From Patescibacteria group bacterium (GTDB lineage Bacteria; Patescibacteriota; Minisyncoccia; Minisyncoccales; JANBVM01): a DNA stretch of 60,850 bases. A model generated the notes under the pieces. It was not told the DNA's origin and did no database searches. It saw nothing but the letters and a program-made list of their open reading frames with translations. The stretch spans positions 1 to 60,850 of the forward strand of contig JANBVM010000001.1 of the NCBI GenBank assembly GCA_024239015.1, given 5' to 3'. Of this stretch, positions 7,383 through 60,220 are shown one piece after another. The position numbers were made by a program, and so were the translations under genes. Numbering within the stretch: position 1 is the first letter of the stretch; each line of letters opens with the position of its first letter.

Positions 7383-7397
7383 CGGTTATTTCACGAA
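7383..7397 (+). repeat. island motif, form A
   Basis: CGGTTATTTCACGAA, an exact copy, in the divergent spacer 7187-7613. Confidence 0.9.
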
Positions 7398-11083: not shown

Positions 11084-11097
11084 TTCGTTAAACGGCT
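11084..11097 (-). repeat. degenerate island-motif copy (form B-like)
   Basis: The plus strand reads TTCGTTAAACGGCT, against TTCGTGAAACGGTT. It is intergenic. It is the only copy right of 4984 with this polarity, apart from bare arms. Confidence 0.35.
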
Positions 11098-11383
11098 GGT
11101 ACTTAACTCATTTATCACGAGTAATTGTAAAGCTACTACTAATATCAAAGAACAAATTTGGGTGTCAGAAGTGTCAATTTCGTTCAAGGATGGGAAATTT
11201 TTCGCAATCAGATTAAAAAAAAAGTAAATTAATCCAATAGTACTTAATCACTAATCATTCTCAAGAGATTCAATATTATTCAAGCAAACATCAATTCTAT
11301 TATATATTTGTTTTTTCAAAGTTCCACTAAAACTAGGAGCAATTGTTAGAAGATCGAATAACTCCTCTTCTAATTTAATTATT

Positions 11384-11899: not shown

Positions 11900-12026
11900 T
11901 AGTTAAGATTATATTTAAAACAATGTTTATTACATAACTATTTGACGTTCTCATGGATCAATTATAAAAAAATATACACATCCATTTTACATAAGCTTTT
12001 TAAATTGTATTCATCTATTTTTACTA

Positions 12027-34924: not shown

Positions 34925-35437
34925 ATGCCGAATTTAAACAATTTAGTCGAAAAAAAAAGAGAAAAGGGAGAATGGTTTGATAGGTTCAAAAGAGAAACGA
35001 CAAAAGGACTAATCATTGATTTTTCTTACGAAGATTCTAACATTGGTAAATGGAAAATAGAGGTAAAACATTCTGAGGAATACAATAACGCGGGTATCAC
35101 AGCTCCATGGAGTAATAATGAATCCAAAATCGCAAATCAATTAAAAAAAAAATCAATGATCTTCCAGTTAACAGAAAATGACGAATCTTCCTTTTATGTT
35201 CCATTTGGAATTGGATATACGGATGGAGAAAGGTTTAGAACGCGACGTATTTCTGACCAGTCAGAGTTGTCGAGTGAAATAAAATCTAATTTTGAAATTG
35301 AAAAATATCAACAAGTAAGAAGCAATCCGAGTAAACAATTAAATAATAAATTAGTTTGCGTATGTAAAAAAGACGATTACAAAAAGATGGCTTTCGCGTT
35401 TATATTACAACGAATTTATCCCGTTTTAGGAAAATAA
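34925..35437 (+). CDS. hypothetical protein
   Basis: 170-aa ORF with no motif recognised. Confidence 0.4.
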   Translation: MPNLNNLVEKKREKGEWFDRFKRETTKGLIIDFSYEDSNIGKWKIEVKHSEEYNNAGITAPWSNNESKIANQLKKKSMIFQLTENDESSFYVPFGIGYTDGERFRTRRISDQSELSSEIKSNFEIEKYQQVRSNPSKQLNNKLVCVCKKDDYKKMAFAFILQRIYPVLGK

Positions 35438-40100: not shown

Positions 40101-40515
40101 GGCCGTTACTTCTTCCTATGAAGATGGTGTTGATAAAAGTAAGGTAGATGAAGCAGCAATGGAAGCTGTGGTAAAATTTGAAAAAGAAAGTGGTAGGGTT
40201 CCTAAGGATGTGCATCTAACAAGTTGCGGATATGATGTCTTATCTAGAAACCCAATTACTGGAAAGATTAGGCATATAGAAGTTAAAGGCCATACTGAGA
40301 GCGGTGATGTTTTTATTACTCCTAATGAATGGTTTATGGCTGGACGATTTGGTGATGATTTTTGGTTATATGTTGTTGATTACGCTTTAAACAATCCAAA
40401 AATTTTTCGGATTCAAAACCCCGCTGAAAACTTAGAATTTGATAAAATTTTAGAAACAAAAAGATATATTATAAAAGAAAATAACTGGAAAAAAAGATAT
40501 AATAATAAAAGGTAA
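37111..40515 (+). CDS. SNF2/DEAH-type SF2 helicase with C-terminal DUF3883 (PD-(D/E)xK-like) domain
   Basis: 1134 aa, TTG start. Helicase motifs are ADDPGAGKT, IIVDEAHKM, LTATPHSG, ILIATEAAGEGINLQ and QRMGRIHRYLQ. The C-terminus GYDVLSRNP...IRHIEVKGHTESGDVFITPNEW...FWLYVV is the DUF3883 pattern. Confidence 0.8.
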   Translation: MNTESLRNRKAKAPWWDGIVKIISISNENDSINIQGVYLRNNEFFEQTINTNRFNEIEFLEENDFEGNPTKFFLALIGRLIRINYEYNPYFAVGISKIDPLPHQLEVVYGYLLARPTIRFLIADDPGAGKTIMAGLLIKELKYRKLISRILIVTPGHLIDNWMVEMKSKFSENFTFVNRQYLNNFWSQNIWKKEKQILTSIDFLKKEDISEKLKNEKWDLIIVDEAHKMSARLEGNKIVKTQRYKLGEILSRNCTHFLFLTATPHSGDMNKFSLFLSLLEPEMFGLSKNFQVESQLQDLSNEENSILIRRIKEEMIDFNGNDLFPKRYPSTIKFELSPKEKELYQRVSQYVKVNYNMALNQKRKTVAFALIMLQRRLSSSIRAIKKSLIRRKKRLESVRESDFVKNYGVNELIEIEKKYRNILDSEDLDDLSEKERWEIEKKLETLTMAQNLEELKYEINLLEELIELAENLESSGEETKLQNLWKTLKEEIRDKHEKLIIFTEFRDTLEYLRENISEWGFQVEVIHGKMSMDERIRAEHRFRQEKQILIATEAAGEGINLQFCWLMVNYDIPWNPNRLEQRMGRIHRYLQTHDCYIYNCIAENTMEGRVFIRILEKLMVIRRALGSDRVFDVIGEIFSDVGLHHLIKIALNSPNGWDDVLERIEQKDNVLIERARQLISSGSLAQKHLDLSILNEEIRKSDEFRLWPEYIHEYTELALHSFGGNITSRGIHTLPNKILDLWDYDLEIQYGPLLEKYKNITFDKTIWKSDSQKEYIAPGHPLIESLIEASIRKFSKHLTKGALFLDPDNKFMGLIWFYQVKITDGRNVIISEKIISIKQSFEGKIQEISPLIIWDYIPINNFNDFENTTIKSEIKNLRKDENKIKNCVEKILRTDYFQNLQLKRNNNFDIKKKAIERSMNLRISESLEKIYQYKEKIENGENYDLPLSNEERNKEKLILEKKQKLEQIRREKEITMNSPQILGMIMVIPKKKLKSGEAVTSSYEDGVDKSKVDEAAMEAVVKFEKESGRVPKDVHLTSCGYDVLSRNPITGKIRHIEVKGHTESGDVFITPNEWFMAGRFGDDFWLYVVDYALNNPKIFRIQNPAENLEFDKILETKRYIIKENNWKKRYNNKR

Positions 40516-40522
40516 AGTTAAA

Positions 40523-43171
40523 TTGACTAAAAAATTTATAGAAGAGCAATTTCCAATAGCAGAAATTTCTAAGTTTGGAGTTAATGAAAAAAATAACAAT
40601 TTTGGAAATATATCAACAATTCATCCTTGGTGGGCTAGAAGACCTACAACTGTAGTAAGAGCTCTAATCTTATCTTGTTTATTTAATTATCCCAATAGTA
40701 AATCCAAAAGAAAAGAGATTTCTAAATATATTATTAATGCCTGCTCCGATTTCATGAAACTACCCAATCAAATAACTTTTAAAAATACATTAAATAATCT
40801 TATACATAATAAGATAACCGGAGAAAGATTAAAACTATTAGATCCCTTTGCTGGAGGAGGTGCTATACCTTTAGAATCTTTGAGATTGGGTTTAGAAACT
40901 TATTGTTCAGATTTAAATCCAGTAGCAGTTTTAACTGAGAAGGCTACATGTGAGTTTTTCCAAAGATTTAATGGGAAATTGGCTGAAGAGTTAAATAAGT
41001 GGAGGAAGATCCTTGATAAAAAATTTCTAAGAACTATTAATCCATATTACCAAAATCCAACAAATGTCAATAAAATATATGGATTTTTCTGGGCTAGACA
41101 AATTGAATGTCCTAACTCGTATTGCAAAGCCCTGATTCCAATGTTGACAAATTGTACATTTGTAAATAAAGAATTGCAAAGAAATAGAAAGAAAATCAAA
41201 AAAATAATTGCTTTAAAACCCATTATATCTGGAGAGAGCGGAGAAAAAAAAATTGATTTTGTAATCCAAAAAGATGATGAAATTGATTTTGACCATTCAA
41301 ATCTAAAAATTTATTCAAGTGGTAAGGTAACCTGTCCATCTTGTGAATTTACAATTGATAATCGAGAAGTTATGAACAAAGTTAAAAGTAAGATTTATGG
41401 AGATCGGTTATTGATTGTAATGGAGAAAGATTCTGATGATAAGAAGATATATAGATTATCAACAGAACATGATTTAAACTTATACGAAAAAGTTAAGGAG
41501 GATTTAAAGAAATATAAAGATTTAATTCCAAATGAAGAATTACCTATGGAAGTTAGAAGATGGCAAGTTCAAAATTATGGAATCTTAAATTGGAATGAAT
41601 TTTTTAATGAGAGACAAATATTGACCTCTATGATTTACTTAGAAAAATTAAGAGAAGTCAAAAATGAGATTATTAAAAACAGTGAATATTCAAAAGAATT
41701 AACATCAGCCATAATAGTTTATCTCTCATTTTATTTATCAAAATTAGTGAATTATAATTCAAAATTCACATACTGGGATAAGAGGGAATCAATTGCCAAA
41801 ACTTGGACTAGGCCAGGTATTTTTATGAGGGGTGCCTATCCTGAAAACAATCCACTATATAATTCATCGGGAAAGATGGAAAATTATTTCTATTATCTAA
41901 ATCTAGTGATTGATAATATTGGAAAAATTCGTAATTATGCAACTATTAACCAAGCTGATGTAAGAAGTCTTGATTATAAATCAGATTATTTCGATTTGAT
42001 AATTACTGATCCCCCCTATTATGATGCAATGTTATATGCAAACCCCTCCGATTTCTTTTATATATGGTTAAAATTATGCTTGGAAGATATATATCCAGAG
42101 CTCTTTCTCTTTAAATTAACCCCCAAAGATGCAGAAATTATTCAGAGCAAATTTAGACATGGTAGAGATAAACAAAAAGCTATAGCCTACTACGAAGAGG
42201 GCTTAACTTTAACATTAAGAGAGTTTTATAGAATTTTAAAACCAAGTGGGATGGGTATTATTATGTATACTCACAAATCAGTTGTTGCTTGGGAAGTCTT
42301 AATAAAAGCTTTGTTAAAATCCAATTTTACAATTTCATCTGCTTGGCCAATCGCAACTGAAACTAAAGGTGGTGTTCGAAGCCTAAACCGTGTAGTACTT
42401 GCTTCCTCAATAGCGTTAGTGTTTAAGAAAATAGAAAAGAAAAAAGAAATCTTCTTCGAAACCCAATTTACTTCTATTTTAGAAACTGAATTAAAAGGGA
42501 AACTAAGAGAGTTACTTGTTGACTTAGAAATTTATGGTGCGGACTATTTTATTTCTGCCATTGGATTCTCATTAAATATTTTTACACGATATGAAGCTGT
42601 ATTAAGTCAAAGAACTGGTAAGAAGGTTGAAGTTTCAGTCTTTCTAGACTTAGTTAGAAAAATAGTAAATGATTTTCTATTAAGTACAGTCATAGAAAGA
42701 AATGTGACAAAAAGTAATGATGAGGTGACAAATCTCTACATCATATGGTGCTGGTTTTTTAGAAATAATGGAATAGAACTTGATGATGCTTTAAAATTAG
42801 CGCAATCATTTGGTGTTGGGGAATTGAATGATTTAAAAAAAAGTAAAATAATCAAACTCAAAGATAAAAAATTTAGATTATTATTGGCGAGTGATAAAGA
42901 GCGAGAGAATTATTTATTAAAAAATATAGACAATCTTAATACTTTAATAGAAAAAATTCACTTATTAGCAATTCTGTGGAAGAATAATGATGATAATTTG
43001 GATAAGATTGTCAAAAACTATGAATTAACATCTGGAGAAAATATTTGGAAAGTTGGACAAGCATTAGCAGAGTTCTTTCCAAATAAACATAAAGAACATA
43101 ATATTTTGCAAGGTTTATTGGCAAAATATGGAAAATCTAGAACTAAAAGTGAATTAAGAAAATTTTTATGA
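40523..43171 (+). CDS. DUF1156-family DNA methyltransferase (N6-adenine type, with zinc ribbon)
   Basis: 882 aa. The N-terminus FPIAEISKFGVNEK...IHPWWARRP is the DUF1156 hallmark. Motif I is DPFAGGGAIPLE and motif IV is IITDPPYYD. It also has CPNSYC...CPSCEF. It starts 7 nt after the helicase gene. Confidence 0.8.
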   Translation: MTKKFIEEQFPIAEISKFGVNEKNNNFGNISTIHPWWARRPTTVVRALILSCLFNYPNSKSKRKEISKYIINACSDFMKLPNQITFKNTLNNLIHNKITGERLKLLDPFAGGGAIPLESLRLGLETYCSDLNPVAVLTEKATCEFFQRFNGKLAEELNKWRKILDKKFLRTINPYYQNPTNVNKIYGFFWARQIECPNSYCKALIPMLTNCTFVNKELQRNRKKIKKIIALKPIISGESGEKKIDFVIQKDDEIDFDHSNLKIYSSGKVTCPSCEFTIDNREVMNKVKSKIYGDRLLIVMEKDSDDKKIYRLSTEHDLNLYEKVKEDLKKYKDLIPNEELPMEVRRWQVQNYGILNWNEFFNERQILTSMIYLEKLREVKNEIIKNSEYSKELTSAIIVYLSFYLSKLVNYNSKFTYWDKRESIAKTWTRPGIFMRGAYPENNPLYNSSGKMENYFYYLNLVIDNIGKIRNYATINQADVRSLDYKSDYFDLIITDPPYYDAMLYANPSDFFYIWLKLCLEDIYPELFLFKLTPKDAEIIQSKFRHGRDKQKAIAYYEEGLTLTLREFYRILKPSGMGIIMYTHKSVVAWEVLIKALLKSNFTISSAWPIATETKGGVRSLNRVVLASSIALVFKKIEKKKEIFFETQFTSILETELKGKLRELLVDLEIYGADYFISAIGFSLNIFTRYEAVLSQRTGKKVEVSVFLDLVRKIVNDFLLSTVIERNVTKSNDEVTNLYIIWCWFFRNNGIELDDALKLAQSFGVGELNDLKKSKIIKLKDKKFRLLLASDKERENYLLKNIDNLNTLIEKIHLLAILWKNNDDNLDKIVKNYELTSGENIWKVGQALAEFFPNKHKEHNILQGLLAKYGKSRTKSELRKFL

Positions 43172-43189: not shown

Positions 43190-46033
43190 ATGTTATTTAA
43201 AAATTGGCAAGAAATAATTGAAATCCAAGATTTTATTGAGTTAGATAAGATAGATAGCTCTCTATTTGTCGCAGATTTGGATAAAATTCGAGCTGGAAAG
43301 GGAATTAGAGAATATTTTGATCCTATTTTGTTTTTTGAAAATACTTATTTAACAAAAGGTTTAACTAAATTATTTAAAGGAGTATTGTCTCGTCTATTAG
43401 GAATTTCAATAGAGGGTGTTTATAACCTTCAAACTTCTTTTGGAGGGGGTAAAACTCATGCTTTAGCAGGGTTATTCCATTTTTTTAATTCTTATAAAAA
43501 ATTGAAAGACGAATTAATCTTTGATGTTATATTAAAAGATTTTAAATCAAAAATCCCTGAAAAATTCTTACTTCAAACTTGTACGATTGTAGGAGCGAAT
43601 TTAGATGTTAATAAAGGTAGAATTGTCGAAAACGATATAAAAATTAATACCATTTGGGGAGAACTCGCATATCAATTAGGAGGGGCAAAGGGTTATAAAA
43701 TAATTGAATTAGACGATAAAAGCAAAACATGCCCGACTAAAGATTCATTAAAGAAACTATTCTTAAGTGTAGAACAACCTTCATTAATTCTAATGGATGA
43801 AGTTTTAGGATATATTTCAAATTTAGATGTAATTGATAAAGAATGGTTAAATACAACTTTTGAATTTTTTCGAAGATTACCTGAAGTAGTTAATGATGAA
43901 GAATTGAAAGTTGCTTTGATTATTTCAATACCAGAAAGTCGTATTGAATCGCAAACCGAAAGAGGAGAAGCTCATCTTTTAACAATAAGTAAAATGATCG
44001 GAAGGGAAGAAAGCATCATTCCACCAATTGAAGGAGAAGAAATCTATCATATTATCCGAAAACGTTTATTCAAACCATTATCAGAAATTAAAAAAAATGA
44101 AATTACGAAAGTTTGTAATAAAATATTCAACCTATATAAAAATATTAAATTTAAAAATTCTCTGCCTGATGAAATATTTTCTACCGTTATTGAAAATTAT
44201 GAAGATAAATTAAATTTAAGTTATCCATTTCACCCTGAATTAATCAAGGTATTTTATGAAAAATGGAATGCTTCCGAAGCTTTTCAAAGAACAAGATATA
44301 TACTAAATATTTTTAGTCTATTGTTAAGAAATTTAAAAAATGACAAAGGTGTCTCTTTAATACTACCAGGACACTTCAGTATAACAGAGTCGGATATTAA
44401 ATCTATTTTATTAAAATTTATGGGTCAAACTTATGAAAGTGTGATTGATACAGACATTAAAAGAGCTCGTTTTCTACAAGAGGAGTCAATTGGTGAAGAT
44501 AAAATAAAAGAGAGTAAATTGGTAGAGAAATTATTTAGAGTTATTTTTTTACATTCTTTTCAAGTTGGAACCAATCCTATTGGAATTAATGAGCAATTTC
44601 TAAATCTATCAGTACTGGATGAATCTGGTATCATCCCTGCCTTAATAGAATTAGCAAGAGCAAAAATGAAAAATTATTTATTCTATTTTTTTGAAGAAAA
44701 CGGTAAATTCTTAATAAAAACAGAAATAAATTTAAATGCGATAATAATTGATGAAAAAAACAAACTAAAGGGAGAAGAAATTGAGGATACTTTTAAATCT
44801 AAACTTAATTCAGTAATAAAAAAGAATTATCAATACATTATATACCCCTCCGTCTCAAATGATATTCCAGACAAACCAGCCATCATTTATATTATAGGTG
44901 ATTCATCATTTGGTATTCCATTAAATAAAATGCATAGTTTAAATCCTGAAATTATTGCTAAGTTATTAGAATTCACAAAAAATATTGGTAAATCAAACAG
45001 AGTATATAAAAACGGATTAATATTTATTTTACCAGAAATTTATAGTTTCAGCGAAGCGCGGGACAAAATAAAAGAATTGTTAGCCTTAGAAAAGATTGAA
45101 AAATCTGATGTTATGAACAGATTATCTTCTACACAAAAGCAAGATTTAAAAAAGAGGATTAAAGATTCAAATGAAAATCTTAACAAATATTATTATAATA
45201 CATATTCAGTAGTATGTAAATGGGATAAAGAATCAAATATAAAAGTGTTTAAAGCATCCCAAGATGGAGAAAATCTTCAAGAACGGGCTGAAAAGATATT
45301 AATCAGTGAAAATGTAATTTTTGAAAGTTATTTTTCGGGAGCTTTAGCTCAGATATTAAATGAAGTTAAAAGTACTGAGGGTTTATGGAACCAATTCTTT
45401 CAAATAGGCGATGTTCTTCTTAAAGATCAAAATGTATTAATAAGAACAATTATCCAAGGAATTCAGAGAGGAGATTTTGCTTATGGGAAATTAGAAGAGA
45501 ATGTTAAAAAAGAGGATTTTTCAAAATTAAAAACAGAAGATTTTAAAATTTGGTATTATCAAGAACAAATTTCAAAAAGTAAAATTACTATTTCAAACGC
45601 CACCTATTTAATTTCGAGTTCTATTGTTGAACAAATTGTTAAAAACTCCATCGAAAAACCTATCCCTCCTGAAACACCACCTATAACACCCCCTACAACA
45701 CTTCCTGAAACACCACCTATAACACCACCTATAACACCCCCTATAACACCTCCTGAAACACCACCTGAGCCAATATCAGAAGAATTGAAAGAATTAAAAC
45801 TATCAATGGAGTTTAGTTGGGAAAATTTGGATCTATTAATGAATTTAAAAACATTACTTTTATTACTAGGACAAAAGTCTGAAGCATTAAAAATTAAATT
45901 CAACATAGATTTTAAGGCTTCTACAAACATTAGTGGAATGATTCTCACCAATATTAAAAAGCTACTTAAAGAATTATCAGATAAAATTGAAAATATTGAT
46001 GTAAAATCTAATATCGAAGATTTAATGGGCTAA
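43190..46033 (+). CDS. DUF499-family P-loop ATPase (BrxC-like)
   Basis: 947 aa. FVADLDKIRAGKGIREYFDPILFFENTYLTKGLTKLFKGVLSRL is the conserved DUF499 N-block. SFGGGKTHAL is Walker A-like and LILMDEVLGY is Walker B. It starts 18 nt after the methylase gene. Confidence 0.75.
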   Translation: MLFKNWQEIIEIQDFIELDKIDSSLFVADLDKIRAGKGIREYFDPILFFENTYLTKGLTKLFKGVLSRLLGISIEGVYNLQTSFGGGKTHALAGLFHFFNSYKKLKDELIFDVILKDFKSKIPEKFLLQTCTIVGANLDVNKGRIVENDIKINTIWGELAYQLGGAKGYKIIELDDKSKTCPTKDSLKKLFLSVEQPSLILMDEVLGYISNLDVIDKEWLNTTFEFFRRLPEVVNDEELKVALIISIPESRIESQTERGEAHLLTISKMIGREESIIPPIEGEEIYHIIRKRLFKPLSEIKKNEITKVCNKIFNLYKNIKFKNSLPDEIFSTVIENYEDKLNLSYPFHPELIKVFYEKWNASEAFQRTRYILNIFSLLLRNLKNDKGVSLILPGHFSITESDIKSILLKFMGQTYESVIDTDIKRARFLQEESIGEDKIKESKLVEKLFRVIFLHSFQVGTNPIGINEQFLNLSVLDESGIIPALIELARAKMKNYLFYFFEENGKFLIKTEINLNAIIIDEKNKLKGEEIEDTFKSKLNSVIKKNYQYIIYPSVSNDIPDKPAIIYIIGDSSFGIPLNKMHSLNPEIIAKLLEFTKNIGKSNRVYKNGLIFILPEIYSFSEARDKIKELLALEKIEKSDVMNRLSSTQKQDLKKRIKDSNENLNKYYYNTYSVVCKWDKESNIKVFKASQDGENLQERAEKILISENVIFESYFSGALAQILNEVKSTEGLWNQFFQIGDVLLKDQNVLIRTIIQGIQRGDFAYGKLEENVKKEDFSKLKTEDFKIWYYQEQISKSKITISNATYLISSSIVEQIVKNSIEKPIPPETPPITPPTTLPETPPITPPITPPITPPETPPEPISEELKELKLSMEFSWENLDLLMNLKTLLLLLGQKSEALKIKFNIDFKASTNISGMILTNIKKLLKELSDKIENIDVKSNIEDLMG
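45659..45772 (+). repeat. in-frame Pro/Thr-rich tandem repeat (PIPPETPPITPPTTLPETPPITPPITPPITPPETPPEP)
   Basis: Units of ACACC(A/C)CCTATA are iterated. The segment sits between the body of the DUF499 protein and its last ~85 aa. Confidence 0.85.
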
Positions 46034-46097: not shown

Positions 46098-47003
46098 ATG
46101 AGTCTTATAAAAGATTATTCAGGACCGAAAAGGTATAAACTATTTAAAGTTACATTAGAAGTTTTTGATAAACTGGGAGGTTCTGGAAGAATTGATGAAA
46201 TTCATGAGAAAATTATTGATCTTCTCAATTTAACAGAGGAAATTATTGATTATCCACACGGAGATAGTGGTAGAAGTTATCAAACGGAGCTTGAATATCA
46301 GTTAGCATGGGTAAGAACGATGTTAAAGCATCTGGGTTTAATAAACAATACAAAACAAGGTGTTTGGGTATTAACACAAAAAGCAAAGGAAAGTGATTGG
46401 GACAATAATTACATTGCAGAAAAATATAGAGAATACCTAAAAAATGAAAAAGAAAAGAAACAAAAATCAAAAAATGGAATGGATACTGTAGTCACTCATG
46501 ATCCTGAATTTATAGAAGATATATATGAAGATGAAAAGGAATTAAATTGGAAGCAAAAATTGAAAAACACTCTTACTACTATGAATCCTTATGATTTTGA
46601 AAAACTTACTCAAATTATCCTTAGAGAATGTGGATTTATGGAAGTCGAAATAACAAAAAAGAGTGGAGATGGTGGTCTTGACGGTAAGGGAATATTCCGC
46701 CTTAATAACTTAGTTAGCATCCCTGTAATTTTTGAATGCAAAATATATAAAGACCCTGTCGGAGCAGATAAAATCAGGAATTTTAGAGGAGCAATGCAGG
46801 GAAGAGCAAACAAAGGTTTATTTTTAGCCACAAGTACATTCACAAGAGCTGCAAAAGAGGAGGCAGCTCGAGAAGGAGCTGATTTAATAAATCTTTTAGA
46901 TGGTGAAAAAGTTATAGATCTTCTTAAAGAACTTGAACTCGGTGTTTCGGTGAAAATGGTTGAAAAAGTGGAAATTGATCAGGAATGGTTTGAAAATCTT
47001 TAA
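46098..47003 (+). CDS. mrr: Mrr-family restriction endonuclease (Mrr_N winged helix + Mrr_cat)
   Basis: 301 aa. YDFEKLTQIILRECGFMEVEITKKSGDGGLDGKGIF...IPVIFECKIYKDPVGADKIRNFRGAM...KGLFLATSTFT is the canonical Mrr catalytic core. Confidence 0.85.
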   Translation: MSLIKDYSGPKRYKLFKVTLEVFDKLGGSGRIDEIHEKIIDLLNLTEEIIDYPHGDSGRSYQTELEYQLAWVRTMLKHLGLINNTKQGVWVLTQKAKESDWDNNYIAEKYREYLKNEKEKKQKSKNGMDTVVTHDPEFIEDIYEDEKELNWKQKLKNTLTTMNPYDFEKLTQIILRECGFMEVEITKKSGDGGLDGKGIFRLNNLVSIPVIFECKIYKDPVGADKIRNFRGAMQGRANKGLFLATSTFTRAAKEEAAREGADLINLLDGEKVIDLLKELELGVSVKMVEKVEIDQEWFENL

Positions 47004-47089: not shown

Positions 47090-48079
47090 TTAGAAAAATT
47101 CTATAACTTTACTCAAAAACATTTCCATTCTTTCCTTTTCAGCCAAACAATCTATCCAATCTTTTGGAATAATGGACGTTCCATAGAAAGCTCCGAGAAT
47201 GCTTCCAGCAATACAGGCGACGCTATCGCTATCGCCATCATGGTTAACAGAAACGCGAAGGCACGATTTTAAATCGTTGGCATACTGAATTGCAGAATAA
47301 AGGGCCATAGCAAAAGCCTCTTCTCCGACCCATCCCTGCCCAATATAAGTAAGCGCTTCTAAATCCGATCCAAAAGCTCCACCTTTCCGCTGAGTAAGGC
47401 TCGTTTTTAATCGTTGCATCGCATTTTCAAAATCGGAATGAAGGTGATTGCAATATTTTTCAATGGGATTTATCATTTTATCGGGGTGCATTCCATTAAT
47501 TGCAAGAGCAACAGCATATGATCCTGCGAGAGCTGCTGCTGTTGCTGCCTTATGACCATGAGTAATCTCAGATTGTATCATGGAAACATTAAATAATAGT
47601 TTATGATGAGGTCCATCTATTAAAGGTAATTCCGGTGTTAAAGAATTTGCGAACCAAATCCCTAATGGCGCTGCGCGCATAACAGTTCCACACCCTTTTG
47701 AATCATTAACACCAGATAATTTCCACTTCTTTGCTCCATTTACTTTCAAAAAATTAACAGCATGAGTAGTTGTACGTCCCGGTGAATACCCGGGGTTATT
47801 TAACCAATTAATGAATTCTTCAGCGAAATTCCTGCCGATTGTATCATCAATTAAATCTTTAATTTGTTTTACTTCTCCTAAACGTAATAAAGAGTTAGTA
47901 ACAGCAATCGTCATCTCGGTATCATCTGTCCAAATAGCATTTTTCTCTGGATTTAGAATTCCATCTTCTCCATAAATATCTCGAATTGCTTCGATTGAAT
48001 GGAACTCAACCGGCATCCCTAGAGCATCGCCTAGCGCTAAGCCCCAATAACAACCCAGAATTTTGTCTTTTGTCAACAT
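47090..48079 (-). CDS. ADP-ribosylglycohydrolase (ARH/DraG family)
   Basis: 329 aa. GCYWGLALGDALGMPVEF, WTDDTEM and GDSDSVACIAGSILGAFYG are ARH hallmarks. Hand counts give about 38-47% G+C. Confidence 0.85.
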   Translation of the reverse strand: MLTKDKILGCYWGLALGDALGMPVEFHSIEAIRDIYGEDGILNPEKNAIWTDDTEMTIAVTNSLLRLGEVKQIKDLIDDTIGRNFAEEFINWLNNPGYSPGRTTTHAVNFLKVNGAKKWKLSGVNDSKGCGTVMRAAPLGIWFANSLTPELPLIDGPHHKLLFNVSMIQSEITHGHKAATAAALAGSYAVALAINGMHPDKMINPIEKYCNHLHSDFENAMQRLKTSLTQRKGGAFGSDLEALTYIGQGWVGEEAFAMALYSAIQYANDLKSCLRVSVNHDGDSDSVACIAGSILGAFYGTSIIPKDWIDCLAEKERMEMFLSKVIEFF

Positions 48080-48691: not shown

Positions 48692-49363
48692 CTAAGATGT
48701 TAAATTATCCATTAATCTTTTAAATTCATCTTCATGAATCTTTATAGAATTTAAAACTTCCTCTATAGGTTTTTCATAAATGTTGGGATGTATTTCAGAA
48801 GTTAAAGTATACACTTCTACATTCTCAAGTTTGAGATTCTTAACATTTTGAAGGTGATTGTCTATTTTTTCTTTTGAAATATTTTCTCTATTAATCACAA
48901 CTATGTGAAAAATTAAATTATCTGATATCTTTAAAATCTTCTCTAGTTTAGTTATACCATCAGGATTTAAAATTTGAATTTTTCCAGATTTCCCTTTAAT
49001 TTTTTTTAATTCTTCATTTTTATTCCTACAAAATTCGGTAATCTTATCTCTCATCCATCCAAAATCAGTTTTTATATCAATAATATGCTCAATAACATTA
49101 TTTTTTACAATAACTGTATCAGGTCTTATGGTTTTAATTCCTTTACTAAAAGTAATATTATGATCAGTAAATAAATCGTAATCCTCAGTTAAATTAACAG
49201 CTAAGAAATAACTAAGTAAATCCTCTGTTAATCCTGAGATTGTTCTGCTAAGACCTCTCTTTATGCTGGGATGATAAAACCTCGGTTTTCTAGCTTCTCT
49301 ATAAAGTTCAATAACTTTGCGGATAAATTCCCGAGGTTCCATTTTAAAATAATATTTTTCCAT
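48692..49363 (-). CDS. hypothetical protein, possible PD-(D/E)xK nuclease
   Basis: 223 aa. TIRPDTVIVKNNVIEHIIDIKTDFGW has P-D ... D-x-K spacing typical of restriction-endonuclease-like cores. No partner methylase is adjacent. Confidence 0.4.
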   Translation of the reverse strand: MEKYYFKMEPREFIRKVIELYREARKPRFYHPSIKRGLSRTISGLTEDLLSYFLAVNLTEDYDLFTDHNITFSKGIKTIRPDTVIVKNNVIEHIIDIKTDFGWMRDKITEFCRNKNEELKKIKGKSGKIQILNPDGITKLEKILKISDNLIFHIVVINRENISKEKIDNHLQNVKNLKLENVEVYTLTSEIHPNIYEKPIEEVLNSIKIHEDEFKRLMDNLTS

Positions 49364-49651: not shown

Positions 49652-50308
49652 AATCCTGAGGATTATTTCAAAAATACACTTTTTTTTAATGAAAAAACAT
49701 CGATATCAATAGAAATTGTAAAACATTTGAAGAGGCAAAAAGAATACATTAAGACTTTTAAATATCCAACGAAGTGCAAACCTATTTTTAATGGAAGTGG
49801 GTGTAATCTCTTATTTTGTAAGAAATTATATGATTTTATTATATTAAATAAATTTTCTTCAAAAATTAATGGTTATAATATAGAGCAATTTTTATATTCT
49901 AAAGAATTTGAAGAAATTAATAAATGGATTTATACACACCATCCCGAATTTTCAGATTTAGATAAAGATTATTTTGAGATATTAAATATCTGGATTAATC
50001 GAAGTGCTTTTAATTATGCGGCGCTTTATAAGTATTGTAATTACAATGATAAGATGTTCTTCAAGACAATAAGAGTCTTAAATAATAAAATAAGATATAT
50101 ATTCCCTTGGATTTGGTCGTTAATTATAAAATTATTAATAATTCAAAATCATAAACTTAAAAGATTCGAGCAATTATCATATTATATAAAATATGGCTTG
50201 AATTCAGAGGAGAAGTTTATAAATTATATATATGAAAGTTTAAGGGATATGGTTATTAAAGAAAAACCAATAACCAAGGATTTAATAAGAAATTTAGTAA
50301 AAATATAG
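49634..50308 (+). CDS. hypothetical protein
   Basis: 224 aa, TTG start. No motif recognised. Its 3' end overlaps 50256..50846 convergently by 53 nt. Confidence 0.4.
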   Translation: MKLVKLNPEDYFKNTLFFNEKTSISIEIVKHLKRQKEYIKTFKYPTKCKPIFNGSGCNLLFCKKLYDFIILNKFSSKINGYNIEQFLYSKEFEEINKWIYTHHPEFSDLDKDYFEILNIWINRSAFNYAALYKYCNYNDKMFFKTIRVLNNKIRYIFPWIWSLIIKLLIIQNHKLKRFEQLSYYIKYGLNSEEKFINYIYESLRDMVIKEKPITKDLIRNLVKI

Positions 50309-50846
50309 AATTATCTAGTGAATGAATTATGTTTTTTTCTGTATAATCCTCATCGTAGATCTCTGAGGTTCCAGTAACCTCATTCAATTTTTCCAACTTA
50401 GGCAATCGTTCACCACATTTAGAACAAAACTGAATATGCGGCGAACAAAGAAAGCTACAATGGGGGCAAGGTACTTTTACGACTTTGTACTTAAAAAGGC
50501 TTTCTGGAGCCTTTACTTCCTTTGGCACACCCATCATCTCTGCTTTCAGGCTTAAAAGTTCTTCATATTTCCTTTTATCTAAGTATCCTTTATCTTCATA
50601 AATGCTGAATATTGCAGTTAAATTTTCATTCCCAGTTGAAAATTCTTCAAAAAATTCAATTTCGGAGGTATTTAATAAAGTATCGCCTTGTTCTTCTGCT
50701 TGATTAATGTAAAGGTGGAACCAGTAATATTGATTATTAGATAAATACTGTTTTAATTTGTAATGGAGCAGGAAGGAAGCGAAAAATTCATGGTGTTTGG
50801 CAAACGCTTCTAACCACTGGATTTCACTGTCAGTTAATTCTTTCAT
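50256..50846 (-). CDS. zinc-ribbon protein sharing the N-terminal domain of 21757..23178
   Basis: 196 aa. MKELTDSEIQWLEAFAKHHEFF...AEEQG...IYEDKGYLD aligns without gaps to MKELSEEEEQWLEVFAKYNPFF...AEEEG...IYEEDGFLD. This is followed by CPHC-x11-CSKC. It lies 19 nt downstream of the HD-GHKL gene. Confidence 0.55.
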   Translation of the reverse strand: MKELTDSEIQWLEAFAKHHEFFASFLLHYKLKQYLSNNQYYWFHLYINQAEEQGDTLLNTSEIEFFEEFSTGNENLTAIFSIYEDKGYLDKRKYEELLSLKAEMMGVPKEVKAPESLFKYKVVKVPCPHCSFLCSPHIQFCSKCGERLPKLEKLNEVTGTSEIYDEDYTEKNIIHSLDNSIFLLNFLLNPWLLVFL

Positions 50847-50865
50847 TGATTGATAAGTCTAATTT

Positions 50866-53562
50866 TTAAATTAATAGACTATTAAATGGAAGATCCTCTA
50901 ATTTTAAATTATATTCAACATCTGATATCTCATTCAATTTATTTATTATTATATGTAGCTGATCCTCATATTCTTCTCTTCGAATCCCCATAAATGGATG
51001 TTTAAAAAGTATGTCTGTCATAGATTTTATTAAGACTTTGAATGAATCAAATATCATATTAAGATTCTCAATATTCTTTGGATTATTTAATAATGCTTTG
51101 TTATATTGATGGTTTTTATTAAATAGAACACCTACTTCAGGCACAACATTAGGAAGTATCATAAAAAGAACATCATTATCATCAAAGTCAACCATTTTAT
51201 ATATATTGAATATTTTTTTATAAGAATCATACTTTTCACTTAAATCAATTTTAATCATTGGTCCAAATTCAGATTGGAAAATTATCATTTTATATCTCTT
51301 TCTAAACAGATACTCTAGAATTAATAAATTGATATATATCGGGACAATAACAATAGGATCTATTCCAGATTCCCCTAAATCAACAAGTTCAATCTCATAC
51401 CATGGTAATGGAAGAAGAAAGTTTACTATTTTATTTCTTGAAATTACATCTTTTAAGGTTTTTTGTTCTATTTTATTTTTTGAAAACATGGTTAAAACAA
51501 TCAATTTTTCAAATAATTCATGATATTTTATAGTCCTAGTGTCTGAATAATAACTTTTTCCTCTAAATATATTAGTGAAAAATAATTTGGATAATTCCCC
51601 AACGTTGATTAGACCTTTTTCATTCTCAAAATTCCCTAGTTTAATAAATATAGCTTTAATAATTTCAATTTCAAAATCCTCCAAAAGAGAGTAAATCTTA
51701 TTTTTATTAATTATTTCCATTCTATTAAGACTTAATTCAAGATCATCAAAGACATTAATTTTTCCGAAAAGAAATTTCAAATTTCTACTACTTATCTTTT
51801 GTACGAAAATGCCCTTATTATATACTTCGATAAGATTATCTGGAACATCATCTTTTAAACATTGATTGATATTTCTACAAATTCTTTCTTTAGGATTAAT
51901 ACAAACGGCAATTCCTATTACTCCTCTAATATTTTTTAATTTGATTTCAGTGGAAATTATGGAATAATCGTTTAATTTTTCTATTTCTGTTAATTTGATA
52001 TATTGTTTTACATCTTCTTCTAAATTCATATTATATTGTTCCCTATTAATAATTTCAATCGTTCCGTTTTGGGAATTAATAATTTCTATTGGAAATTCAA
52101 CATCTTTAACATGTTTTTGAATATGTTTAATTAACTCTTTATAAGATAATTCTTCTTTTACTTCATTGCTTAAAATAAAAGTGATTTCTGTTCCTTCATT
52201 TTCAAGGCTAGAGTCATTATAAAAATAAAAATATGTTTTAAGGTTTGGATTTTTGTCAACTCTAAATCTTATTGTCTCTTTATTTTCCATTTTTGTTTCT
52301 ATTTCAAAAAAATCACTGATCATAAAATAGGAGAATACCCCAATTCCAAAAATAGATATTAAACTATTATTAATGGAAATCTCTTCACGATAAAATGATT
52401 TACCAAGTTTCCCAAAATAATTTTTCAAAATGAATAAATCCATACCACCTCCATTATCTTTTATTTTTACTTTATCATTACTATAAAATATTTCAATTTT
52501 GGGCTCAAAATCTTCATCTAACATTTTTTTATATTTACATGTGTCTATTGCATTTTGAATTGCTTCTCGTAAAGCGATATATTTATCTTGATAAAGATTT
52601 TTGCTAATAAAATATTGAAAGATATTATTTACATCGATTGTGAATCCTATTGGAATAGGTTGAAAATTAATAGGTTTAATATTTCTTCTTAATTTTCTCC
52701 AATGAAAAATGTATTCTTGATTACCTGTATTGCCTAAATTATATATTATTTCATAACAGTATTCAATTACGTTATCTATCTTATCAAATTGTTCATTTAA
52801 TGCGTTATATACTAACTGACTTTCTGTTTCACCAGTTATGATGATAACATCTCCATTATAATTAACCTGATGAGTAGATAAATGCTTTTCCCATTCTAAT
52901 TTTCCTCTGTCATCATCTGGTTTAAAAAATTTAATAATTAAATCAGGCAAACGTTTCTTAGATAAATCTAATTCATCAGCTAATCGTAAAATACAGCTTA
53001 GAAATGGCAAACAAATATAAGAATCTGTTTGATCTCTCAAAAAAAACTTTGTTGGATAATTTTTAATTTCCAATCTCCTATGGGCTTTGGAAACTAATGC
53101 TATTGCTTCAGCATAGTCTTCATTTATAATTTGCAATTCTGTGTTCCAATGTTTTTTAATAAAAGAAAAACTTAATTCATGGTGAATTTCTCTTATGAAA
53201 TCTACTTTTTTTGCATTTTTATTCTTAATTCTAAATTTATTATACTCTTCTCCATCTGCATATTTTAAAAGTTCTTCTGGGGGAATACACATTCCAATAT
53301 CATGTAAAATGCAAGCAGAAAGTAAAATATAAATTTCATCAGCATTTAACTTATCCGGTCCATCTTTAACTAATAGTGAAACTATATTTGCTACCATAAG
53401 TGAATGATCTATTGAATGATCTGTAAAAGTAGGAAAATTTACTACATACTTTTCTAGAAGTTTTCCCGCTTTTAATTTAATATTAGTGAAGGATACAAAA
53501 AGTTCTAAATCAAGATCTTTCAATTTTTTTTCTAGATCATTCTCAACCTTAATTGCATTCAT
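50866..53562 (-). CDS. HD-domain + GHKL (HATPase_c/MORC-Hsp90-like) ATPase fusion protein
   Basis: 898 aa. HD: FTDHSIDHSLMVANIV...ACILHDIGM...ADELD. GHKL: REAIQNAIDT (N box), DNGGGMD (G1) and GKLGKSF...FGIGVFSYF (G2). About 450 aa of the C-terminal region are unassigned. Confidence 0.65.
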   Translation of the reverse strand: MNAIKVENDLEKKLKDLDLELFVSFTNIKLKAGKLLEKYVVNFPTFTDHSIDHSLMVANIVSLLVKDGPDKLNADEIYILLSACILHDIGMCIPPEELLKYADGEEYNKFRIKNKNAKKVDFIREIHHELSFSFIKKHWNTELQIINEDYAEAIALVSKAHRRLEIKNYPTKFFLRDQTDSYICLPFLSCILRLADELDLSKKRLPDLIIKFFKPDDDRGKLEWEKHLSTHQVNYNGDVIIITGETESQLVYNALNEQFDKIDNVIEYCYEIIYNLGNTGNQEYIFHWRKLRRNIKPINFQPIPIGFTIDVNNIFQYFISKNLYQDKYIALREAIQNAIDTCKYKKMLDEDFEPKIEIFYSNDKVKIKDNGGGMDLFILKNYFGKLGKSFYREEISINNSLISIFGIGVFSYFMISDFFEIETKMENKETIRFRVDKNPNLKTYFYFYNDSSLENEGTEITFILSNEVKEELSYKELIKHIQKHVKDVEFPIEIINSQNGTIEIINREQYNMNLEEDVKQYIKLTEIEKLNDYSIISTEIKLKNIRGVIGIAVCINPKERICRNINQCLKDDVPDNLIEVYNKGIFVQKISSRNLKFLFGKINVFDDLELSLNRMEIINKNKIYSLLEDFEIEIIKAIFIKLGNFENEKGLINVGELSKLFFTNIFRGKSYYSDTRTIKYHELFEKLIVLTMFSKNKIEQKTLKDVISRNKIVNFLLPLPWYEIELVDLGESGIDPIVIVPIYINLLILEYLFRKRYKMIIFQSEFGPMIKIDLSEKYDSYKKIFNIYKMVDFDDNDVLFMILPNVVPEVGVLFNKNHQYNKALLNNPKNIENLNMIFDSFKVLIKSMTDILFKHPFMGIRREEYEDQLHIIINKLNEISDVEYNLKLEDLPFNSLLI

Positions 53563-53994: not shown

Positions 53995-55170
53995 TTAAAT
54001 CAAAATTTCTTTTCCCAGAATCCACACATCGTTTTCAACGTCAAGTTCTTCAGTTTTCTTATAAAAGGTCCTATTTTCTTGGCTTAAGACACCCAAATGT
54101 ACCAAGTGCCGTTTAAACGCGAAGAAGAAATTATAGTGCCCGAAGTCTGAGATTGTCTTTTTATAATTATCCATTAAGGCTTCTCTATTTCCGGATAAGA
54201 ACATGGATATAACTTTATCCTTTGCCGTTGGCTTAACAAAAAAATTCAAAAAGAGGTTAGGGTGCTCCAAGATCAATATATCTATTATTTCTTTCGAACT
54301 GACTTCGGTTTTATCAAAACTTTGAAGGATTGAGACGAACTGTTTAAAATCTGGATTTTGAAAATATATAAGCTGTAGAAATTTGGCGAGAGATGGGAAT
54401 TCTGAGTACACACACTTGTTTCTCTGAGTTTGATTTAACCTTTCCTGTAATTTAGAGATGGAATCTATACCAATCGAAATAAAATGTTCTAAGCAGAATT
54501 GACCAATTATAGACAAATTATAACCATTTTCATTTAAATCTAAAATTCCAATCGTATTTGCTCCACCAATAAGTTCACTGTAAGCCTTATTACTCCAATC
54601 GACCTGTTCAAAGTTGCTTATCAATTCCTTTTTTGTTCTTGATTTAGTCTCCCGACCTTGAAACAAGAAAAGCGGAGCGAAATAGTTAATGATGTGAGTC
54701 CGACCAAATGACGAGAAACTTCTATTTTTCTTTTTCTGATGCTGGAGTACGGTTAATTCATTTTTGACATCATCTAGGAAAATCGGGGATATATTATAAA
54801 GAGGGTTAATGACTTCCACACTTGAACCAGATTCATCTACCGAAATTAATCCTAATCCCGAAGATAGTGCGATGTTAGAAATTTTATTTAAAAAGCTATT
54901 TATCCCTCCTATATAAGATAGATGTACTCCAGATTTGTAAGTTAGAGCTTGACCTATTGCTTTTTTATAATCGGTGAGACCTTTTACTTCCACGGCAAAA
55001 ATTTGCTTAACATTATTTAATCCAAAAATATCAGGGCGAGCACCACTGATTAGTAAACAATGCTTTTGAAAGCGTAAATCTTTATGAATAGGATGATCAT
55101 CAATCCAAAATTGCCAGCTTTCATGTTGTAAGTGTTCACAAATTCGGGATACGACTTCCGCTTCATTCAC
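53995..55170 (-). CDS. hypothetical protein with N-terminal PD-(D/E)xK-like domain
   Basis: 391 aa. EAEVVSRICEHL...GARPDIFGLNNVKQIFAVEVKGLTDYKKAIGQALTY gives the E...PD...E-x-K...Q order of restriction-endonuclease-like folds. Confidence 0.45.
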   Translation of the reverse strand: MNEAEVVSRICEHLQHESWQFWIDDHPIHKDLRFQKHCLLISGARPDIFGLNNVKQIFAVEVKGLTDYKKAIGQALTYKSGVHLSYIGGINSFLNKISNIALSSGLGLISVDESGSSVEVINPLYNISPIFLDDVKNELTVLQHQKKKNRSFSSFGRTHIINYFAPLFLFQGRETKSRTKKELISNFEQVDWSNKAYSELIGGANTIGILDLNENGYNLSIIGQFCLEHFISIGIDSISKLQERLNQTQRNKCVYSEFPSLAKFLQLIYFQNPDFKQFVSILQSFDKTEVSSKEIIDILILEHPNLFLNFFVKPTAKDKVISMFLSGNREALMDNYKKTISDFGHYNFFFAFKRHLVHLGVLSQENRTFYKKTEELDVENDVWILGKEILI

Positions 55171-58633: not shown

Positions 58634-60220
58634 ATGACTTCATTAACTTTTCATGGTGGAATATCGACTATCGGTGGAAATTGCGTTATCATTGAGGAGA
58701 GCAACACTCGAATCATGTTTGACAATGGGATGTGCTTTTCCAGTGAAGGCGCTTATTACAAAGATTTCTCAAGTCCCAGGACGAACAACGATTTACGGGA
58801 TTATCTAAAATTAGGCTTAATTCCTGAAATTCCCGGGATATACGGAAAAGAAAAGATTAACGATGTGTGTCTCGAAGATGCTGATCCTGAGAGTGAGTAT
58901 TTATTTAAAGCCGATCTTATCAGTTATGAGGATTATATGGAAGATAATGGCGCACCATACATTTCCGCGCTATTTTTAACGCATGCTCATTTAGACCATG
59001 TCCGTAATATTATGTTTATGGCTCCCGAAATTCCTATTTATTGTTCTGAAATTACAAAACGACTATTAGAAATCATCTGCGACACTTCGGATTATGATTT
59101 TTTTCATTACAGTTATCATGAGAAAGGAGAGAGAAGTAAGAACAGTTTTTTTCCTGGTTCTGTATTTAAAAAAAAATGCAAAAGGGAGAGATTTTTAGAG
59201 ACAATCGTTCCTAATGAACCTATGGAACTTCCGGAAGAAAAAGGCCTTTTTAAAATAGAAGGTTATCCGGTCGATCATTCGGTACCTGGTGCGATGGCGT
59301 TTAAAGTCACTACAAAGAGTGGGAAGACGATAATATATACCGGGGATATAAGATTTCATGGACATGACTATGAGAAGAAAATATCTGATGATTTTGTAAA
59401 AAAGGTCGGTTCTAATCCAGACATTTTGATATCGGAAGGGACCAGAATTGGTGATAATAAGGAATTTGGTGAAAGCGATGTTTATCACAATATTAGTGCT
59501 TCATTGAAAAAAGACAACAACCTGTCAAAAAAGTTGATAATAGCATCTTTTCCTTGGAAGTCTATTTCACGCTTTGTTACAGTCCATCAAATTGCTAAGG
59601 ATTTAAAAAGAGTTTTAGTAATTCAACCGAAATTGGCGTATACAATTCACAATTTGCAAGATTTTGATTCAATAATGATAAAAGGAGTTTTAAAAGAAGA
59701 TACTGTAAAGATATTCTTACCAAGGAAATATAGTATGATTTATTCTGATGATGATTATAAAACGACTAAATATCATGTATCCTATGATGTAAAATGGCCA
59801 AAGAACCAGCCAATTGGGTTCTATTCAGCTGAATATGGAGAAAATATTTTAGTCAGGGCATGTGATATAAAAGAAAATCCGAGTGATTATTTACTGCACC
59901 TTAACTTTTATGAGCTTAACGAGTTAATTGATATCTGTCCTCCGAAAGATAGTTATTTTTTCAATCTTAAGACAGAGCCTTTTGATGAGGAGGGAGAGCT
60001 TGAAGAAAAAGTTCTTATGAATTGGATATCGAAATTCAGTTTACAATTTGAAGGAGAGAAATATCACGCGTCTGGTCATGCTCCGGGCATTCATATCAGA
60101 GAGATGATAAATAAAATTAGACCAATGAAGATTTTTCCAATTCATACTGAAAAGCCAGAACTATTTAAATATGAAAATGCTGAGACACACATAATAAAAG
60201 GGCAGAAATATTTCATTTAA
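58634..60220 (+). CDS. metallo-beta-lactamase/beta-CASP ribonuclease, RNase J-like
   Basis: 528 aa. FLTHAHLDHVRN is the HxHxDH motif. It also has VDHSVPGA and TGDIRFHG. The C-terminal KYHASGHAPGIHIREMINKIRPMKIFPIHTE is the RNase J/beta-CASP motif C region. GGGTGA lies upstream of the ATG. Confidence 0.7.
   Translation: MTSLTFHGGISTIGGNCVIIEESNTRIMFDNGMCFSSEGAYYKDFSSPRTNNDLRDYLKLGLIPEIPGIYGKEKINDVCLEDADPESEYLFKADLISYEDYMEDNGAPYISALFLTHAHLDHVRNIMFMAPEIPIYCSEITKRLLEIICDTSDYDFFHYSYHEKGERSKNSFFPGSVFKKKCKRERFLETIVPNEPMELPEEKGLFKIEGYPVDHSVPGAMAFKVTTKSGKTIIYTGDIRFHGHDYEKKISDDFVKKVGSNPDILISEGTRIGDNKEFGESDVYHNISASLKKDNNLSKKLIIASFPWKSISRFVTVHQIAKDLKRVLVIQPKLAYTIHNLQDFDSIMIKGVLKEDTVKIFLPRKYSMIYSDDDYKTTKYHVSYDVKWPKNQPIGFYSAEYGENILVRACDIKENPSDYLLHLNFYELNELIDICPPKDSYFFNLKTEPFDEEGELEEKVLMNWISKFSLQFEGEKYHASGHAPGIHIREMINKIRPMKIFPIHTEKPELFKYENAETHIIKGQKYFI

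Follow-up and report, generated by a model that had tools for sequence, protein, structure and literature searches.

The HD-CE-Hsp90 fusion gene

The window analysed here is a stretch of 60,850 nucleotides (nt), positions 1 to 60,850 of contig JANBVM010000001.1 (assembly GCA_024239015.1), with a GC content of ~27%. Its minus strand carries a gene of 898 codons plus a stop codon (50866..53562), the product of which joins an N-terminal HD phosphohydrolase domain to an ATPase of the GHKL type; we refer to it as the HD-CE-Hsp90 protein. A second open reading frame (ORF) of 196 amino acids, encoding a zinc ribbon, follows on the same strand (50256..50846) after a gap of 19 nt (50847-50865). Both were taken from the ORF list; the longer one was supported by homologues of 870-930 amino acids with the same architecture and the shorter one by a weak DZR match. 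An open frame of 898 codons at 27% GC would far exceed what is expected by chance. An earlier description of the region made from the letters alone (the sequence-only reading) had proposed an HD-GHKL fusion of 898 amino acids with a zinc-ribbon ORF 19 nt downstream. Both features were borne out: the catalytic residues of both halves of the fusion were kept in 111 aligned homologues, the quoted motifs EAIQNAID (333-340), DNGGGMD (369-375) and FGIGVFSYF (405-413) were all found in the translation, and the coordinates and the CPHC...CxKCG ribbon of the shorter ORF were verified.

The HD-CE domain occupied residues 43-266 (52765..53436, minus strand) and matched Pfam PF24391 with an E value of 2.9e-43. 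At 148.9 bits the match exceeded the gathering threshold of 27 bits, and it covered nearly the whole model (positions 1-261 of 263). The module has therefore already been recognised computationally, in that it exists as a Pfam family; the origin of the name "HD-CE" could not be traced in the literature searched, three Aravind-lab surveys included. The inactive form of the domain, iHD-CE (PF24401), gave no match in the Pfam scan of the window protein. The HD signature consisted of H49, H53, H87-D88, H127-H128, H161 and D196, and across the 111 homologues residues H49, H53, H87, D88, H127, H161, R162 and D196 were invariant. Conserved histidine and aspartate sets of this kind are known from two-metal HD phosphodiesterases and nucleases, and the invariance suggests that the domain holds a two-metal HD site. 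When modelled alone, the domain adopted a divergent HD fold with a predicted local distance difference test score (pLDDT) of 82.8. A fold search with this model placed the helical HD-like domains of PPX/GppA nearest (E~1e-4), with weak matches to cyclic-nucleotide phosphodiesterases and HD-GYP, and the domain sequence had no significant match in the PDB.

The sequence-only reading had typed the ATPase as histidine-kinase/MORC/Hsp90. The Hsp90 part of this label stood, while the histidine-kinase and MORC parts were dropped, as the top sequence and fold matches were all Hsp90, HtpG, TRAP1 or GRP94. The N-terminal ATP-binding (Bergerat) domain spanned residues ~305-510 (52033..52650, minus strand), as judged from NCBIfam HtpG/HSP90 matches, PDB matches and invariant residues. 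Its motifs were REAIQNAID (332-340) with E333 and N337, D369-x-G371-x-G373, G406 and G408 of FGIGVFSYF, and G457-T458. Residues E333, N337, G373, G406 and G408 were invariant in the alignment, and the ATP-binding motifs, including the Hsp90-type glycine lid, aligned residue by residue with the N-domains of HtpG and Hsp90. In the profile searches, HATPase_c_3 (Pfam) covered residues 330-432 at 24.8 bits, just below its 25-bit cut-off, and the sole NCBIfam ATPase matches were HSP90/HtpG equivalogs (E 1e-19 and 1e-18), which fell far under their cut-offs (PRK14083, 70.6 bits against 455; PRK05218, 66.9 against 371). Pfam HSP90 (PF00183) was not matched at E<=0.01. Because the equivalog cut-offs failed and the Pfam HSP90 model was not matched, we read the ATPase as a divergent Hsp90 paralogue and not as an HtpG orthologue.

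A single-sequence search of the PDB returned N-domains of HtpG and Hsp90, the strongest at E 7e-14, and the 60 best PDB sequence matches were all Hsp90, HtpG, GRP94 or TRAP1, with the single sequence and the 111-sequence profile alike. A MORC/MutL-type GHKL assignment was considered and rejected, as the 60 top-ranked PDB sequence matches and the 50 top-ranked fold matches included no MORC or MutL chain and were Hsp90s without exception; the MORC-specific S5-domain motif (PMC2292703) was not examined separately.

A C-terminal region of ~450 amino acids had previously been described as unassigned. This region corresponds to the middle and C-terminal domains of Hsp90, because the profile alignment and the Foldseek matches span them. 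The Hsp90-like middle domain was placed at residues ~511-800 (51163..52032, minus strand; boundaries approximate) by HtpG profile alignment and Foldseek, and the C-terminal helical domain at residues ~801-898 (50869..51162, minus strand) by the helices of the model (819-826, 831-858, 862-880 and 893-897), the Hsp90 alignment and N815 of an 'NxNH' motif, which was invariant in the 111 homologues. The family profile aligned with residues 8-474 of E. coli HtpG, comprising the N-terminal and middle domains, at E 2.2e-26, and eukaryotic Hsp90s aligned to it as far as position ~835. In Hsp90, an arginine of the catalytic loop contacts the ATP gamma-phosphate. Its counterpart is R614 in 'LSLNR' (codon 51721..51723, minus strand), which falls on the HtpG catalytic loop 'LNVSRE' and was near-invariant, being kept in at least 85% of the 111 sequences.

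An AlphaFold2 model of the 898-residue monomer, built from the 111 homologues, reached a mean pLDDT of 86.6 and a predicted template-modelling (TM) score of 0.78. Searched against the PDB with Foldseek, its top 50 matches were all full-length Hsp90s, aligned over 490-720 columns with E values from 1.6e-19 to ~1e-15 and with structural-alignment identities of 12-19%. The TM scores were only 0.3-0.56, owing to domain orientation and to the extra HD domain, which is joined through a linker of ~8 residues to strand 1 of the Hsp90 part. By sequence and model, the protein is thus best described as an HD domain followed by a complete three-domain (N-terminal, middle and C-terminal) divergent Hsp90, the C-terminal helical domain of which is presumed, by analogy, to mediate dimerisation.

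The zinc-ribbon neighbour

Adjacent genes on one strand might encode the two components of a single system, and the sequence-only reading had placed the fusion gene in an operon with a zinc-ribbon adaptor. The comparison of loci spoke against this part of its account. Relatives of the 196-residue protein were absent from all of the ~85 HD-GHKL family loci searched by tblastn (80 genome and 5 metagenome loci), and none of the other window neighbours of the fusion gene recurred in the 91 fetched loci searched in the same manner. Conversely, the zinc-ribbon relatives found in four contigs (L001, L087, L088 and L089; 61-82% identical) had no HD-GHKL neighbour, so that the proposed co-occurrence was not found from either side.

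The zinc-ribbon family was found in Lokiarchaeota and in marine-sediment metagenomes, and its ribbon cysteines were invariant. In the full-length relatives, of 293-331 residues, a helical domain at the N-terminus and the zinc ribbon precede C-terminal leucine-rich repeats. The window copy was 78-86% identical to them up to residue ~181, after which its last ~15 codons were unrelated, and no leucine-rich-repeat remnant was found downstream of the ORF. We therefore regard the ORF, from its alignment, as a 3'-truncated copy of a Lokiarchaeal gene family with a zinc ribbon and leucine-rich repeats. A 473-residue ORF elsewhere in the window (21757-23178, minus strand) was observed to start with a paralogue of the N-terminal domain of this family (~35% identity over ~105 residues); that domain would therefore be a reusable Lokiarchaeal module.

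At the nucleotide level, homology to other Lokiarchaeal contigs was confined to ~50304-50858, ending at the truncation point and ~10 nt before the ATG. Because the homology starts just ~10 nt upstream of the ATG, this edge is taken as a rearrangement or insertion junction. The wider neighbourhood also differed from that of the relatives, which have an RNase III gene ~1.4 kilobases (kb) upstream (L087 and L088) and a Band_7 gene downstream (L001 and L087). In the window, the RNase III gene (31322-32026, plus strand) lies 18 kb from the zinc-ribbon gene and in the opposite relative orientation to that in L087 and L088, and an island of defence genes, described below, sits between the two. This arrangement suggests an insertion and an inversion between the RNase III and zinc-ribbon genes. 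The adjacency to the fusion gene is best explained as the junction of a truncated resident gene with acquired DNA, and the zinc-ribbon gene accordingly appears as an unrelated neighbour and not as a partner. The case calls for caution against inferring a system from a single locus.

Distribution and genomic contexts of the family

The spread of a gene family can indicate whether its members serve a housekeeping role. A search among 5.8 billion proteins recovered more than 200 homologues of the HD-CE-Hsp90 protein with E values down to 1e-141, the closest of which were only 41-42% identical, and the window copy thus appears as a divergent member of the family. The architecture of 870-930 residues recurred in hundreds of proteins. 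When 1.84 billion representatives were searched with a profile, 13,389 matches reached E<=1e-3 and 2,130 clusters reached E<=1e-30, and a pattern scan of one genome per species, covering 185,579 species, confirmed 109 loci, a count that is a lower bound as only two peptide patterns were used. The hosts included Bacteroidota, Ignavibacteriota, Agrobacterium, Cloacimonadota, Chloroflexota, Firmicutes/Paenibacillus, Methanosarcina, ANME-1, Halobacteria, Bathyarchaeota and Thor/Lokiarchaeota. From this distribution the family appears large but sporadic, with evident transfer between bacteria and archaea, and does not resemble a housekeeping family. On plasmids, only distant relatives were found, on 22 of 72,556, of which 21 were non-mobilisable. 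The database labels were "ATP-binding protein", "HD domain-containing protein" or, wrongly, "molecular chaperone HtpG".

The domains evolved at unequal rates. Mean pairwise identity was 49% in the HD domain and 48% in the Hsp90 N-terminal domain; it was 17-25% in the middle domain, which is fast-evolving except for the catalytic loop, and 22% in the C-terminal domain. An asymmetry between conserved HD and N-terminal domains and diverse middle and C-terminal domains would be sensor-like.

The flanks of the family members were then compared. Clustering of all flanking ORFs showed that the 21 closest HD-Hsp90 loci had no neighbour in common, and the neighbours of the nearest relatives, P0002 and P0005, differed from those in the window. 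As far as the comparative evidence shows, the gene would be a singleton and the whole functional unit. In bacterial core loci the flanks were heterogeneous, and a minority of them held defence genes, namely an AriA/PtuA-type ATPase, SoFic, AbiLi and phospholipase effectors. Neighbours labelled 'mad3' were considered as a GHKL partner and proved to be ordinary ABC exporters or transporters. In Flavobacterium lacus (L012, 12682-14667) uvrB begins 2 nt past the stop codon of the HD-Hsp90 gene, and in a Kordia metagenome-assembled genome (L021, 9402-11414) ligA begins 70 nt past it; this adjacency to DNA-repair genes, seen in two of 20 loci, is probably a coincidence.

Other relatives were physically linked to nuclease or defence modules. 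In P0218 and in Paenibacillus L023, an N-terminal Mrr_cat endonuclease domain stands ahead of HD-CE-Hsp90. Triple fusions of ~1120-1140 residues, with an N-terminal extension of ~250 residues, were observed in P0218, P0221, L023 (9233-12622) and L028 (Paenibacillus). In a sister clade from Flavobacteriia, a gene of ~805 residues encoding HD-CE-GHKL follows 10-18 nt behind an OLD/AriA/GajA-type AAA_15 ATPase of ~580-640 residues (L045, L047, L051, L052, L057 and L060; ~7900-12350 in each). The second gene of this module was not recognised by PADLOC, and the module is possibly a new OLD-family-associated system. Its layout of an ATPase and an effector mirrors the two-gene organisation of Gabija, PARIS and OLD systems, in which, however, the second gene is a UvrD-like helicase (GajB) in Gabija or a Toprim protein (AriB) in PARIS and not HD-CE-GHKL; neither the window gene nor any of the 20 relatives closest to it has an OLD/AriA/GajA-type partner. 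Distant plasmid relatives lay beside type I restriction-modification and 'beta family'/sce7726 genes, and a few on large plasmids adjoined insertion sequence (IS) elements. In another HD-CE-GHKL clade, of ~806 residues, the gene was observed to follow that of a TraD/TraG-type coupling protein at a distance of ~100 nt (L056, L058 and L065; ~8250-12360), and carriage by an integrative conjugative element is therefore probable. In Methanosarcina (L036, L040, L042 and L044; ~3500-12900), an HD-CE-GHKL gene of ~990 residues lies just downstream of gyrA (E 2e-165) and a 634-residue ORF, which we take to be gyrB as a guess; ORFs of ~350 residues are repeated on the other side, and this synteny is stable within the genus.

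The window copy itself lies ~5 kb from a complete Hma system and an Mrr gene. The Hma genes, all on the plus strand, encode the HmaA SNF2 helicase (37111-40515; E 2e-220), the HmaB methylase (40523-43171) and the HmaC/DUF499 ATPase (43190-46033; E 3e-106), the last of which contains a PPxTPP repeat, rich in proline, close to the C-terminal end. The next gene (46098-47003, plus strand) encodes a restriction endonuclease of the Mrr type. A protein of 762 residues (32174-34462, minus strand) matched the PADLOC candidate PDC-S73 over its full length at E 1e-44. The surrounding region is a probable Asgard (Lokiarchaeal) defence island.

Searches for a known defence family gave little for the window protein. 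Against PADLOC-DB v2.0.0 it had only chance-level matches (REase_II, E 9e-4; Cas3-HD, E 9e-3), and the bacterial orthologues were likewise unmatched there, save for their HD domain against RT_UG24. In these family members the HD-CE domain matched the C-terminal part of the RT_UG24 model at E 8e-19 and 2e-14. The earlier statement that no experimentally named defence system is known with this exact pair was in agreement with these results, as PADLOC v2 returned none, no specific NCBIfam family was matched and no experimental paper was found. The literature searched held nothing on Hsp90-like or HtpG-like anti-phage proteins, nor any description or test of an HD-Hsp90 fusion.

Proposed function and alternative explanations

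We propose that the HD-CE-Hsp90 protein is a single-gene, ATP-gated HD immune effector, a proposal that we hold at about even strength for and against. The conflict role suggested in the sequence-only reading is plausible in this light, and the support for it is circumstantial: the location within an Hma/Mrr island, the Mrr-fused variants, the OLD/GajA-type partners of the sister clade and the HD-CE-like domain of UG24. If it works as Hsp90 and the GHKL-nuclease defence proteins do, it would form a dimer through its C-terminal helical domain, and its fast-evolving middle and C-terminal surfaces would engage a trigger, which could be a phage or mobile-element protein handled as a client or else a nucleic acid. 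ATP binding and hydrolysis, through E333, N337, DxGxG, the glycine lid and R614, would then drive closure of the N-domains. Closure would reposition or pair the HD domains, because each is tethered directly to a strand that moves during closure, and the repositioned HD would be switched on to hydrolyse nucleic acid or nucleotides, so that the invader is restricted or the infection aborted. Dimerisation, the nature of the trigger, the gating of the HD domain by ATP, its substrate and an anti-virus phenotype are all inferred in this scheme. A bolder version, in which innate immunity has taken over the Hsp90-type clamp as a sensor that sees viral proteins as 'clients' through its rapidly diversifying middle and C-terminal surfaces and licenses the fused HD on closure, is speculative and we consider it unlikely.

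Several results weigh against an immune role. Most immediate neighbours of the core loci in bacteria have housekeeping roles (uvrB and ligA, ABC exporters, and genes for a CCA-adding enzyme and a tRNA synthetase), and credible defence matches amounted to ~8 of 99 flanking ORFs, a count made without a control set. The HD domain of the window protein did not itself reach RT_UG24 at E<=0.01, and the link to UG24 runs through its homologues. The nearest HD structures were the helical domains of PPX/GppA and nucleotide phosphodiesterases and not Cas3-type nucleases; judging from the modelled fold, a nucleotide or second messenger would be as likely a substrate as nucleic acid. No model of the family was present in PADLOC v2 or NCBIfam (June 2026), and no experimental work on any family member was found in the literature. 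Among 50,697 phage records there were no phage-borne copies, and hence no sign of an arms race.

The structural results and the housekeeping flanks bear on a different explanation, that of a non-immune accessory enzyme in which a specialised Hsp90 paralogue would link the remodelling of proteins to the breakdown, by hydrolysis, of a nucleotide or second messenger (alarmone, cyclic nucleotide or polyphosphate-like) in a stress or regulatory role. The nearest HD folds, PPX/GppA, cyclic-nucleotide phosphodiesterases and HD-GYP, would suit such an enzyme, as would the many bacterial copies amid housekeeping genes, the stable position downstream of gyrA in Methanosarcina and the HtpG label in some sources. 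However, the family is very patchy, has no synteny that holds across lineages and has passed between bacteria and archaea, and its middle and C-terminal domains evolve quickly, unlike those of a housekeeping Hsp90. The Mrr fusions, the pairing with an OLD/GajA-type ATPase, the HD-CE-like domain in common with UG24, a predicted defence reverse transcriptase, and the position of the window copy inside a defence island also argue for an immune role. A conserved housekeeping family with stable non-defence synteny, which would have spoken against the earlier conflict proposal, was therefore not what the loci showed. On balance we regard the accessory-enzyme explanation as somewhat unlikely.

A function for mobile elements, as an addiction, exclusion or anti-defence gene of integrative elements or plasmids, appears quite improbable. 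The clade downstream of the TraD/TraG-type coupling protein, the distant relatives beside IS elements on large plasmids and the behaviour of the gene as a singleton insertion in variable contexts are in keeping with it. The absence from phage records and the scarcity on plasmids, nearly all of them non-mobilisable, are not, and the core copies are mostly chromosomal and lie among housekeeping genes; in the window, neither an integrase nor a tRNA gene flanks the HD-Hsp90 gene, and no tRNA gene was found at all. We consider it highly improbable that the gene forms a two-gene system in which the zinc-ribbon protein serves as adaptor or sensor of the HD-GHKL enzyme. The spacing of 19 nt on one strand makes co-transcription physically possible, and zinc ribbons with the leucine-rich repeats of the full-length relatives would be plausible sensor modules. 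Yet the window copy has lost those repeats and ends in ~15 unrelated codons, the homology edge upstream of its ATG points to a junction, its relatives keep other neighbours and occur in none of the HD-GHKL loci, and P0002 and P0005, the closest relatives of the fusion, have different neighbours as well.

Comparison with characterised proteins places the single-gene immune effector proposal in context. With Hsp90, HtpG, TRAP1 and GRP94 the protein has in common, over residues ~305-898, the Bergerat domain with the motifs E-x3-N, DxGxGM, 'GxFGxGxxS' and GT, a middle domain that supplies the arginine of the catalytic loop (LNR compared with LN(V/L)SRE) and a C-terminal helical domain. It differs from them in its additional N-terminal HD enzyme, in its sporadic and not near-universal distribution and in its fast-evolving middle and C-terminal domains. 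The closest working analogy is VcSduA/paraMORC3 (Shedu type I-D), a single GHKL and nuclease protein in which the ATPase and the nuclease are both required for anti-phage defence (PMC12137116). In both proteins a single chain appears to hold a GHKL ATPase and a hydrolytic effector together with a middle domain that resembles a clamp, and in VcSduA the ATPase has been proposed to gate the effector (PMC12137116). The effector of VcSduA is, however, a C-terminal DUF4263 nuclease of the PD-(D/E)xK type whereas that of the window protein is an N-terminal HD domain, and its ATPase is MORC/MutL-like with a lysine-type transducer contact, whereas that of the window protein is Hsp90-like with an arginine. 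Neither DUF4263 nor any other nuclease Pfam family was matched in the window protein, and PADLOC Shedu gave no match.

The UG24 class 3 reverse transcriptases, which are predicted to be defensive, carry a C-terminal phosphohydrolase (COG3294) at the place where UG1/DRT1 has a nitrilase domain, mutation of which abrogates immunity (PMC9226505). The HD-CE domains of family members matched the RT_UG24 model at region ~700-910. The partner module of UG24 is, however, a reverse transcriptase in place of an Hsp90, and its defensive role is itself a prediction. Sacsin combines Hsp90-like repeat regions with DnaJ and HEPN in one protein, and thus likewise joins Hsp90-like ATPase modules to a nucleic-acid-targeting hydrolase domain (PMC3710099); it differs in being giant and eukaryotic with a C-terminal HEPN effector, and there is no sign of common descent of the two fusions. 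The paraMORC-HEPN fusions are a further architectural parallel (PMC3710099).

GHKL ATPases that gate nucleases, as in MORC/paraMORC proteins and VcSduA, are an emerging theme in immunity, and a clamp of the Hsp90 type that bears an HD effector at its N-terminus would be new among them. With thousands of clusters in bacteria and archaea, labelled as 'HtpG' or 'ATP-binding protein', the family offers an unmined single-gene candidate that is easily testable. If defensive, it would add one more single-gene system to the catalogues, provide a compact model of the Hsp90 cycle controlling a fused enzyme and show that the defence islands of Asgard archaea hold immune genes of bacterial type. If the immune-sensor version were true, it would represent a new sensing principle in prokaryotes, the chaperone-style recognition of foreign or mis-assembled proteins, which Asgard archaea would possess and which would have a parallel in eukaryotic sacsin.

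Further genes of the window were annotated around the fusion. Inside the island, an ADP-ribosylglycohydrolase (47090-48079, minus strand; E 7e-64) directly follows Mrr on the opposite strand and might undo the work of an ADP-ribosylating effector or anti-defence factor. Two minus-strand ORFs, one on each side of the HD-Hsp90 region, matched no family and showed PD-(D/E)xK-like motifs, one of 223 residues with 'RPDTVIV...IIDIKTD' (48692-49363) and one of 391 residues with 'RPDIF...AVEVKG' (53995-55170). Neither recurred beside HD-Hsp90 genes elsewhere, and their motifs make them possible orphan nucleases within the island. A 170-residue ORF (34925-35437) had a weak TIR-like (ThsB) match. Lastly, a metallo-beta-lactamase/beta-CASP protein of 528 residues (58634-60220, plus strand) was identified as a distant relative of RNase J, with an E value of 1.5e-17 and a score far under the cut-off.

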